This document shows, one piece after another, positions 11,090 to 42,232 of a stretch of DNA of 64,000 nucleotides. Below the pieces are notes generated by a model. The model did not search any database. It was given only the letters and a program-made list of their open reading frames with translations, and was not told the DNA's origin. The position numbers were made by a program, and so were the translations under genes. The stretch is taken from assembly GCF_030013595.1 (NCBI RefSeq), contig NZ_CP122768.1; one strand, given 5' to 3'. Position 1 is the stretch's first letter, and every line of letters begins with the position of its first letter. This stretch comes from Escherichia coli. GTDB taxonomy: Bacteria > Pseudomonadota > Gammaproteobacteria > Enterobacterales > Enterobacteriaceae.

Positions 11090-11172
11090 AAACGCCTTAT
11101 CCGGCCTACAAATTCTACCAAATTCAATATATTGCAGAAATCATGTAGGCCTGATAAGCGTAGCGCATCAGG
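11090..11172. repeat. REP elements (BIME-like); the first REP is split by the IS insertion
   Basis: GCCGGATGCGGC (9640-9652) on the left flank and CGCCTTATCCGGCCTAC (11093-11109) on the right rejoin into a consensus-length REP; a second REP GTAGGCCTGATAAGCGTAGCGCATCAGGC lies at about 11143-11171. Confidence 0.6.
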
Positions 11173-29729: not shown

Positions 29730-29743
29730 TAACGCCATTATTA

Positions 29744-29773
29744 AAAAGCCTGCCATCTGGCAGGCTTTTTTAT
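29744..29773 (+). terminator. Rho-independent terminator of glyQS
   Basis: AGCCTGCC-ATCT-GGCAGGCT hairpin followed by TTTTTT. Confidence 0.7.
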
Positions 29774-29947
29774 CGCTAAATAATAGAGCAACCTTTAATA
29801 ATCTTCTGCTGAATAAAGATTGTCTCATATATTAATTTTATGAGATTTTTTTAGGATTATATCAAGGAGAAGAAACGAACTTATTAAGCTAGAATAGCTG
29901 CGGGTGCTTGAGACTGTTTGTCTCAGGTATTCACCGAAAGGCAGACA

Positions 29948-30012
29948 GAGAAAAGCCCCACCTGACTATAAATCAAAGTGAGGCTACCCTATGCCTGAAC
30001 ACCATAAGGTTA
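29948..30012 (-). ncRNA. sokA: Candidate Sok-type antisense RNA of the hokA locus (approximate ends)
   Basis: Minus strand opposite the mokA start and leader carries a TTGATT -35-like element and a short hairpin plus U-tract; placement is by analogy with hok/sok. Confidence 0.35.
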
Positions 30013-30203
30013 GCCTCTTACTCGTTGGAAATCAACACAGGAGGCTGGGAATGCCGCAGAAATATAGATTACTTTCTTTAATAGTGATTTGTTGCACGCT
30101 TTTATTTTTCACCTGGATGATAAGAGATTCACTGTGTGAATTGCATATTAAACAGGGGAGTTATGAGCTGGCGGCATTTTTAGCCTGCAATTTGAAAGAG
30201 TAA
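29991..30203 (+). CDS. mokA: Mok-type overlapping reading frame, in-frame N-terminal extension of hokA
   Basis: 70-aa ORF MPEHHKVSLLLVGNQHRRLGMPQKY... whose last 50 codons are hokA. Confidence 0.5.
   Translation: MPEHHKVSLLLVGNQHRRLGMPQKYRLLSLIVICCTLLFFTWMIRDSLCELHIKQGSYELAAFLACNLKE
30051..30203 (+). CDS. hokA: Hok-family type I toxin (small membrane peptide)
   Basis: 50-aa ORF MPQKYRLLSLIVICCTLLFFTWMIRDSLCELHIKQGSYELAAFLACNLKE; single transmembrane helix. Confidence 0.8.
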   Translation: MPQKYRLLSLIVICCTLLFFTWMIRDSLCELHIKQGSYELAAFLACNLKE

Positions 30204-30335
30204 GAGTCTTCGGCGGGAAGTTATTCCCGTCTTTCTTACGGCGTTGCGCATTCTCATTGCACCCAAATTTATTTTTCACAAAAATAATAATAGATTTTAT
30301 TACGCGATCGATTATTTATTTCCTGAAAAACAAAT

Positions 30336-30367
30336 AAAAAAATCCCCGCCAAATGGCAGGGATCTTA
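30336..30367 (-). terminator. Rho-independent terminator of cspA
   Basis: Minus-strand hairpin ATCCCTGCC...GGCGGGGAT followed by TTTTTTT, just after the cspA stop. Confidence 0.6.
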
Positions 30368-30390
30368 GATTCTGTGCTTTTAAGCAGAGA

Positions 30391-30603
30391 TTACAGGCTG
30401 GTTACGTTACCAGCTGCCGGGCCTTTAGCGCCGCTTTCGATGGTGAAGGACACTTTCTGACCTTCGTCCAGAGATTTGTAACCATCGTTCTGGATAGCAG
30501 AGAAGTGTACGAACACGTCTTTAGAGCCATCGTCAGGAGTGATGAAGCCGAAGCCTTTGTCAGCGTTGAACCATTTTACGATACCAGTCATTTTACCGGA
30601 CAT
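30391..30603 (-). CDS. cspA: Major cold-shock protein CspA
   Basis: 70-aa [41 protein letters not shown]... Confidence 0.95.
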
Positions 30604-30762
30604 AGTGTATTACCTTTAATAATTAAGTGTGCCTTTCGGCGATATGGCGTGCTTTACAGATTTTGAAGCGTTAAAGGAATGTGCACTACGAGGGGTATCA
30701 ACGATAACTCTTGAAGGGACTTGCCTTACTACACTGCTTTAATGGTCTGTACGTCAAACCGT
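30604..30762 (-). promoter_or_regulatory. cspA long 5' untranslated leader (cold-box region)
   Basis: About 159 nt between the inferred start ACGGTTTGACGTACAGACC and the ATG; long-leader architecture of cspA is established knowledge. Confidence 0.65.
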
Positions 30763-30800
30763 TGATGTGCATTAAGCCACGCATTGGCGGGTGATGCAAC
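30763..30800 (-). promoter_or_regulatory. cspA sigma-70 promoter
   Basis: Minus-strand TTGCAT (-35) and CTTAAT (-10) with 17-bp spacing, AT-rich upstream. Confidence 0.6.
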
Positions 30801-30883
30801 AATTATTTTTCATATTTATGATTAATCGGTTGGAAAACGGTCCTGTCATCAGGACCGTAAACAGCAATAAAGTGGATAAAAGT

Positions 30884-31174
30884 CTATTCCATCAACTGCT
30901 TACTTAATGCCGGGTTGGCTTGAATCAAACGCATCAATTTTAGTTCGGCACTTGAAGGCTTCACGCGTCTGGATTCCCATTCCTTTACCATGGCGACTGA
31001 TACGCCCAAAACCCGGGCGAAATCATCGATTTTTAATCCTGTCCCTTTTCGTAACTGCTCAATTTCGGTACAGGATGTTGTTCTGTGCGTCAGGGTAATT
31101 TTCTGCGTTTCATCTTTAAAAACAATCTGTTCCAGGCTGCTCAACAGCTCATGCATTGGATCTTTATATTCCAT
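30884..31174 (-). CDS. yiaG: HTH-type (XRE-like) transcriptional regulator YiaG
   Basis: 96-aa ORF with HTH motif LKIDDFARVLGVSVAMVKEWE. Confidence 0.85.
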   Translation of the reverse strand: MEYKDPMHELLSSLEQIVFKDETQKITLTHRTTSCTEIEQLRKGTGLKIDDFARVLGVSVAMVKEWESRRVKPSSAELKLMRLIQANPALSKQLME

Positions 31175-31607
31175 TGAAAACTCCTCAAATCACACTGCGG
31201 GATCGTGAATTGCATCGAAGCTCATTAAGAATAGTCGGGAAAAGCAGACACAGCGGGGTGAAGTCAGGGCATGCTCTGGCTATGATTCGATTCAGCCAGT
31301 CATTTAGCGTGACTTATAGCCACCTAACGATCTGATAAATGCCGATATATCTCTTACCACTCCCGGTTTGTAAAGATTTCGAAAATCTAATGTTCTGCGA
31401 AGGCGTAAATCTCTGGCTACAAAAAAAGCAACGGCACCATCATTTTTTAACAATGAAACAACAAATTAACCTTGTTTCATTTTCTCCATGATTTTACCAG
31501 GAAGATTACGTAGAAAGGGTATCCTGCAAGCCTGTCCTGGACTATCCTTGTCACGTCAGACACGCGTGTGTCGTTGTGCGCTTTTTTTGGGTGAAAGGAG
31601 TAAGAAA

Positions 31608-41959: not shown

Positions 41960-42036
<77 letters not shown>

Positions 42037-42124: not shown

Positions 42125-42232
42125 ACGTAGGCCTGATAAGACGCGCCAGCGTCGCATCAGGCAACGGCACCGCACTTATTGTTGGATGCGGCGTGAACAC
42201 CTTATTCGACCTACACACCACACATTTCCCTG
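42125..42232. repeat. REP elements (BIME-like) downstream of proK
   Basis: GTAGGCCTGATAAGACGCGCCAGCGTCGCATCAGGC plus a degenerate second REP (GGATGCGGCGTGAACACCTTATTCGACCTAC). Confidence 0.55.

Follow-up and report, generated by a model that had tools for sequence, protein, structure and literature searches.

The window, a stretch of 64,000 nucleotides of Escherichia coli DNA (contig NZ_CP122768.1), carries on its minus strand what is almost certainly the promoter and long 5' untranslated leader of cspA, a locus that has long been studied and is already fully described. The promoter (PcspA) is a composite one, built from an AT-rich UP element, a TTGCAT hexamer, a 17-bp spacer ending in TGn and a weak CTTAAT hexamer. 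The biology of this locus is not new, the region being among the best-studied regulatory regions of E. coli, and its value here is that of a calibration point. The features of the region, with the evidence for each, were as follows.

30832-30858, minus: hairpin resembling a terminator, belonging to the upstream gene yiaG, ACGGTCCTGATGACAGGACCGTTTTCC (sequence, conservation)
30831-30800, minus: AT-rich UP-element region 5' of the -35 hexamer (81% A+T over 32 nt)
30799-30794, minus: -35 hexamer TTGCAT (sequence; named as the PcspA -35 in PMC2613000)
30793-30777, minus: spacer CACCCGCCAATGCGTGG, exactly 17 nt, last bases TGG (sequence)
30779-30777, minus: the extended -10 motif TGn (here TGG), which closes the spacer (sequence)
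30776-30771, minus: -10 hexamer CTTAAT (sequence; named as the PcspA -10 in PMC2613000)
30770-30763, minus: discriminator GCACATCA, 8 nt (sequence)
A30762 or A30763, minus: probable transcription start (published leader lengths, identity to K-12)
30762-30604, minus: cspA 5' untranslated leader, 159 nt (sequence; inside the Rfam RF01766 match)
30760-30744, minus: cold-box stem-loop GGTTTG-ACGTA-CAGACC with a 6-bp stem (Rfam consensus structure, minimum-free-energy folds at 37°C)
30756-30746, minus: 11-nt cold-box core TGACGTACAGA (core as reportedly defined)
30640-30628, minus: 'upstream box' GCCGAAAGGCACA, a small GCC/GGC hairpin 11 nt 5' of the Shine-Dalgarno sequence (conservation, Rfam structure)
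30616-30613, minus: Shine-Dalgarno sequence AAGG, 9 nt before the ATG (sequence)
30603-30391, minus: cspA coding sequence, 70 codons and stop (ORF; NCBIfam NF007679 CspA)
30591-30577, minus: 'downstream box' ATGACTGGTATCGTA, in the cspA coding sequence
30366-30336, minus: intrinsic terminator of cspA, with a 12-bp stem and then a T-run (terminator scan, 30366-30339; end of the Rfam match, 30336)

Identity of the locus

Alignment of 581 nt with the genome of K-12 MG1655 showed no differences from -139 through the ATG, and a single synonymous change (GAC/GAT) in the coding sequence. The K-12 gene at the matching position is cspA (b3556), located between yiaG and hokA. The -35 hexamer, TGn, -10 hexamer, cold box, upstream box, Shine-Dalgarno sequence and terminator are the same in both strains, which differ by one base in a T-run downstream from the terminator. 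Of 5,426 complete E. coli genomes, 5,422 carried the 601-nt region, which had an identity of at least 99% in 4,857 records.

The 70-aa ORF has the CspA sequence, with NF007679 CspA as its best NCBIfam match (172 bits). The Rfam family RF01766 (cspA thermoregulator), which represents the 428-nt cspA mRNA of Giuliodori et al. 2010, covers 30763-30336 over its full length (model positions 1-428 of 428, not truncated) with 501 bits (gathering score 78) and E = 1e-142. The match showed no difference of substance; the model spans the whole mRNA, beyond the leader, and starts one base upstream from A30762.

The hexamers are those published for PcspA: the -35 sequence TTGCAT and the -10 sequence CTTAAT, with a requirement for TGn (PMC2613000). 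The requirement of TGn for PcspA activity is attributed to Phadtare and Severinov 2005 in a passage of PMC2613000 and is also mentioned in a passage of 10.1101/2021.03.08.434349. The position given for PcspA, NC_000913 3717854-3717919 (PMC2613000), maps to about 30821-30756 of the window, ending at about +7 counted from A30762, with a genome-version offset of about 1,977 bp that we infer. Identity to K-12, the RF01766 match and the published hexamers and leader thus bear out the cold-shock architecture that the original prediction had assigned to this promoter and leader.

Many complete E. coli genomes carry this cspA gene in their RefSeq (PGAP) annotation under the name 'cspE, transcription antiterminator/RNA stability regulator CspE'. 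On NF049933, the NCBIfam equivalog for CspE, the CspA protein reaches 124 bits, just over the cutoff of 120, while its true best model, NF007679 CspA, at 172 bits, is of the 'subfamily' type; presumably the equivalog name takes precedence over the subfamily name. The cspE label on a bona fide cspA gene (30603-30391, minus) is a systematic misnaming.

Promoter elements and transcription start

The TTGCAT and CTTAAT hexamers with their 17-bp spacing had been predicted with no strand given; both are present, on the minus strand. The AT-rich upstream DNA that had been predicted together with them was also found: the A+T content is 91% in the 22 nt at 30823-30802, compared with 49% across the window. 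This segment, however, lies mostly outside the interval 30604-30800 for which it had been claimed. The -10 hexamer departs from the consensus at its first two positions, and the TG is placed exactly one base before it, as in TGnTATAAT.

The upstream border of the promoter region is formed by the terminator-like hairpin of yiaG, with arms ACGGTCCTG and CAGGACCGT around an ATGA loop, followed by TTTTCC; this structure directly abuts the cspA UP element. A terminator scan made no call at 30832-30858 because the T-run is short, with only 4 T.

Conservation was analyzed in an alignment of seven sequences: the window, Escherichia albertii, Escherichia whittamii and four Salmonella loci. The last four were obtained by an exact-protein look-up (identical CspA) and were taken for Salmonella from the cueP gene downstream. 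The numbers of invariant positions and the identity to Salmonella were as follows.

-35 hexamer: 6 of 6 invariant; identity to Salmonella 100%
TGn: TG invariant, n varies; identity to Salmonella 67%
-10 hexamer: 5 of 6 invariant (TTAAT; first base C or G); identity to Salmonella 83%
Spacer excluding TGn: 5 of 14 invariant; identity to Salmonella 66%
Discriminator: 5 of 8 invariant, plus a 1-nt length difference between species; identity to Salmonella 62%
Distal UP region: 6 of 34 invariant; identity to Salmonella 26%
Proximal 9 nt of the UP region: 7 of 9 invariant
Leader: 149 of 165 invariant; identity to Salmonella 91%

Conservation of the leader far exceeds that of the promoter spacer. In the UP element the proximal part, AAAATAA, is conserved between Escherichia and Salmonella and the distal part is not. 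The yiaG hairpin has 20 of its 27 columns invariant in Escherichia and Salmonella (83% conserved to Salmonella), unlike the DNA between this hairpin and the -35 hexamer, which is not conserved to Salmonella. The Salmonella enterica locus thus shares with the window the CspA protein, the -35 hexamer, the TG, the TTAAT and most of the leader, but has GTTAAT as its -10 hexamer, a discriminator of 7 nt rather than 8, an untranslated leader of 163-164 nt (counted from ACGG), an unrelated distal UP region, and cueP in place of hokA downstream.

The same promoter elements recur at the K-12 paralogues cspB, cspG and cspI, which have TTGC at -35 and TG-n-(G/C)TTAAT. Their transcripts carry GGTTTG at the 5' end and the GCCnAAnGGC hairpin, and have long untranslated leaders (160, 155 and 145 bases, respectively; PMC6719143). 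As the first base of its -10 hexamer, cspA has C in Escherichia and G in Salmonella, and cspB, cspG and cspI also have G. The GCCnAAnGGC motif is common to cspA and the three paralogues and is invariant in the orthologues, and the leader in the window carries it as the conserved GCCGAAAGGC hairpin. The mean column identity of cspA with cspB, cspG and cspI was only 67%, in a paralogue alignment that can be trusted only within the conserved boxes; the orthologues available share 91% identity. The cold-box loop and its 3' arm are mostly missing from cspI in that paralogue alignment. The cold-box loop is ACGTA in cspA compared with AAGAA in cspB.

A scan of 100,044 species genomes with the cspA-leader 21-mer GTACAGACCATTAAAGCAGTG, a pattern too strict to reach other genera, returned five Escherichia loci and one other. 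The additional match, in a Succinivibrionaceae metagenome-assembled genome (L007 5034-5054, minus), was rejected: we take it for a chance match, and neither for a cspA leader nor for contamination, since that sequence has no other similarity to the window and about 0.5 matches were expected. It falls in a 272-aa ORF which, judged by its motifs, encodes a Dam-like DNA methyltransferase.

The hexamers themselves do not set this promoter apart from the rest of the window. The exact string TTGCAT-N17-CTTAAT occurs once, with 0.01 occurrences expected, but this count tests only a remembered string. Compared with the sigma-70 consensus the site scores 7/12 (TTGCAT vs TTGACA, 3/6; CTTAAT vs TATAAT, 4/6), and sites scoring at least 7/12 with a spacing of 16-18 bp numbered 2,149 on both strands of the window, against about 2,122 in random sequence. 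A generic sigma-70 scan of 30000-31500 made no call at PcspA, because CTTAAT lacks the A at position 2 and TTGCAT matches only 3/6; its sole call was an unrelated site at 31141-31170 (plus strand). A composite signature, defined as TTG at -35, a TG separated from the -10 by one base, 4/6 or more matches at -10 and 85% A+T or more in the upstream 22 nt, was found once in the window, at PcspA, against 0.03 expected. The core hexamers alone are therefore at chance level and only the composite is unique in the window.

These numbers lend some weight to the idea that TTGCAT/CTTAAT is itself a chance match, and that cspA transcription has another source, for example yiaG read-through or a -10 framed otherwise, as TAATGC would be: about 2,150 sites in the window match the consensus equally well, the generic scan passes over PcspA, the usual second-position A is absent and, numbered literally from A30762, T30774 and A30773 are at -12 and -11. 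Such an explanation is extremely improbable. The composite signature is found nowhere else in the window, the TG stands exactly where it does in TGnTATAAT, TGn is required according to published mutagenesis (PMC2613000), and between yiaG and the promoter stands a conserved terminator-like hairpin. Moreover, an invariant -35, TG and TTAAT next to a variable spacer and discriminator, with the same elements recurring at cspB, cspG and cspI, is what one would expect where a genuine promoter drives a functional RNA leader, and this excludes a chance match.

The promoter had also been put forward as a positive control for the readability of promoter-scale signals in the window. The coordinates and the reading of the reverse strand were right, but readability as such did not hold, given hexamers at chance level and a consensus scan that misses PcspA. 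Identification of the site rests on knowing cspA, and the control tests recall, not signal. Promoter calls made elsewhere in the window without such prior knowledge should not inherit its confidence.

The predicted leader of about 159 nt agrees with the sequence: the first base of ACGGTTTGACGTACAGACC is A30762, and 30762-30604 comprises exactly 159 nt, with the cspA ATG next at 30603-30601. In the alignment, conservation becomes high from TCAACGG on, three bases before A30762. Identity to K-12 and the literature would put the start of transcription at the AA of TCAACGG, leaving an ambiguity of one base. A 159-base 5' untranslated region containing the conserved cold box is described in PMC6719143, which also notes a downstream box; a 160-nt leader, a 187-nt fragment (leader plus 27 nt) and a 428-nt transcript are used in PMC6386945 and PMC9947658. 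The comparison with the published start, which had been proposed as a check, thus came out in favor of the predicted position to within that one base. The 428-nt transcript, 30763-30336, consists of a 160-nt leader, a 213-nt coding sequence (stop codon counted) and 55 nt of 3' untranslated region, at the end of which lies the terminator. For cspA mRNA made in vitro, the T7 template starts GGGTTTGACGTACAGACC and the template of the transcripts is given as GGTTTGACGTACAGACC (PMC2948425). The downstream box sits in the first 9 codons (PMC6386945).

From this same promoter the dominant start might be A30763 (AACGG..., 160-nt leader) rather than A30762 (ACGG..., 159-nt leader), a choice to which we give slightly less than an even chance. 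A30763 is preceded by C30764, so that a pyrimidine at -1 meets a purine at +1, and it lies 8 nt past the -10 hexamer, compared with 9 nt for A30762. Start-site selection favors a purine 7-8 nt after the -10. Salmonella and E. whittamii have a discriminator 1 nt shorter, so that in them AACGG begins, with its first A, at the canonical 7th position. The RF01766 model begins at 30763, and the Gualerzi and Marzi laboratories use the 160-nt leader and the 428-nt transcript. The numbering of the Inouye laboratory, on the other side, gives 159 nt (PMC6719143), and starts may be heterogeneous over the two neighboring A residues.

The name 'upstream box' for the 13-nt element reportedly goes back to Yamanaka and colleagues in 1999, with the numbering +123 to +135. 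This numbering fits +1 = A30762, which also speaks for the 159-nt leader. The 11-nt cold-box core is said to have been defined by Jiang and co-workers in 1996, and the core UGACGUACAGA was reportedly implicated by them in autoregulation. Parts of the literature cite Xia et al. 2002 alongside this autoregulation.

The distance from the -10 hexamer to the conserved 5' end of the transcript differs by one base among close relatives: the discriminator leading to AACGG has 8 nt in E. coli (GCACATCA) and 7 nt in both E. whittamii (GCACTCA) and Salmonella (GTGCTCA). This difference may relate to the 159/160-nt ambiguity.

Folding of the leader and cold induction

The cold box can be compared with its published form: the 6-bp stem-loop was found at 30760-30744, as described in PMC9411577. 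Its hairpin had a probability of 0.95-0.99 at 37°C in the folds of the 187-nt and 428-nt RNAs.

The leader alone folded at 37°C with -27.2 kcal/mol and was no more stable than shuffled sequences (z = 0.07). The 428-nt transcript was more stable than its shuffles (z = -3.5; none of 100 shuffles as stable). That the fold of the whole mRNA and not that of the leader is significant agrees with the published view of the whole mRNA as the thermosensor (PMC9947658).

Base-pair probabilities were computed from 5 to 42°C with an equilibrium model, which cannot represent the published kinetic trapping. The modeled 187-nt fragment showed a sharp switch with a midpoint near 25°C. At 20°C and below, nucleotides 4-20 (the cold box) paired with a distal segment, nucleotides 100-118 (P of about 0.54-0.64), and the Shine-Dalgarno sequence was 0.32 unpaired. 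At 30°C and above, the local 6-bp cold-box hairpin prevailed (P = 0.81-0.95) and the Shine-Dalgarno sequence was 0.02-0.09 unpaired, the value at 37°C being 0.02. The direction of change is the one described in PMC9411577 and PMC9947658. According to passages of PMC9411577 that report Zhang et al. 2018, the cold box forms a 6-bp stem-loop at 37°C, and at 10°C it pairs with distant downstream sequence while the start-codon region becomes looser; the cold form is confined to temperatures below 20°C (PMC9947658).

The same model gave no switch for the 160-nt leader, in which the long-range form was favored at all temperatures, none for the 428-nt RNA, in which the hairpin form was favored at all temperatures, and none between 10 and 37°C for the 191-nt Salmonella equivalent. 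Support for the thermosensor from equilibrium folding is thus not robust, the modeled switch being confined to the 187-nt fragment. The original prediction had proposed folding of the leader at 37°C versus 10°C: the published switch was recovered in the 187-nt fragment but not in the leader as such.

The behavior of the 187-nt fragment, which toggles between two folds near 25°C with a more accessible Shine-Dalgarno sequence in the cold, is what would be seen if the leader alone were a simple equilibrium RNA thermometer whose own folds at 10 and 37°C explain cold induction. We regard this as unlikely. Besides the lack of stability over shuffles and the absence of a modeled switch in the three other RNAs, published probing shows that RNA in the 37°C form, in which the leader pairs with coding nucleotides 232-326, keeps this form once moved to the cold (PMC9947658), which argues for a switch that is kinetic or co-transcriptional and involves the whole mRNA; mRNA stabilization and CspA binding contribute too.

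The cspA mRNA also differs from the known thermometers. Heat-sensing thermometers of the ROSE and fourU types open by melting as the temperature rises and work as reversible zippers. They have in common with cspA a cis-acting structure of the 5' untranslated region that sets access to the Shine-Dalgarno sequence and AUG according to temperature. The cspA mRNA, in contrast, can be translated better in the cold, adopts alternative global folds that include the coding region and is further regulated by mRNA decay and by CspA.

Cold induction of CspA in this strain, judged from its identity to K-12, would proceed as described in the literature. PcspA is expected to be strong at all temperatures and to depend on the UP element and TGn; the UP element is reported as required in passages of PMC6386945, citing Mitta et al. 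1997, and of 10.1101/289264. Induction would be mainly post-transcriptional. The mRNA should be very unstable at 37°C and stabilized in the cold, the published half-life being about 12 s at 37°C and far longer at low temperature (10.1101/289264, PMC9411577); RNase E cuts it mainly in the 3' untranslated region, just before the terminator (PMC2948425). In the 37°C form the cold box would be a local 6-bp hairpin, with the Shine-Dalgarno sequence and AUG occluded. Below about 20°C the whole mRNA would fold differently, the 5' cold-box region pairing distally and the ribosome-binding site being more open, so that RNA made in the cold would adopt an open, translatable fold. CspA would bind its own mRNA and help ribosomes to advance on the closed 37°C form.

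Two further readings go beyond what is described for cspA. The -10 hexamer xTTAAT is invariant in Escherichia, Salmonella and the four cold-inducible paralogues except for its first base, and has a T at the second position, where the consensus has a normally essential A. The odd hexamer could be a selected feature of cold-shock promoters, beyond a weak hexamer rescued by TGn, but we give this only a slim chance; it might, for example, tune promoter opening or the choice of start site at low temperature. A smaller possibility still is that the different temperature responses of the E. coli and Salmonella leaders in the folding model go back to a real difference in the set-point of the thermosensor.

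Other features of the window

Downstream from cspA lies a hokA/mokA toxin locus (29902-30203, plus strand), where the Rfam 'sok' model scored 124 bits at 29902-30053 and a 70-aa mokA-like ORF contains the 50-aa hokA. In K-12 MG1655, IS150 adjoins hokA and sokA is a pseudogene; in the window hokA has no adjoining IS150, an arrangement shared by most other E. coli loci compared. The DNA of the window thus does not come from K-12.

Just past the end of glyS, at 29737-29803 (minus strand), the model of the enterobacterial sRNA STnc370 gave a sub-threshold match (48 bits, gathering score 54). In essence the matching sequence is a GC-rich hairpin flanked by runs of A and T, and looks like a bidirectional terminator between glyS and hokA.

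Two copies of the rdlD antitoxin RNA were found on the minus strand, at 50128-50193 and 50611-50676, about 480 bp apart (87 and 82 bits). The pair implies tandem ldr/rdl type I toxin-antitoxin units; K-12 presumably has a single ldrD/rdlD at the corresponding locus.

Rfam matches above threshold were also obtained for a tRNA (41960-42033, plus strand), for naRNA4, a REP-derived nucleoid-associated RNA (42130-42211, minus strand), and for the ES036 sRNA (11110-11152, plus strand).
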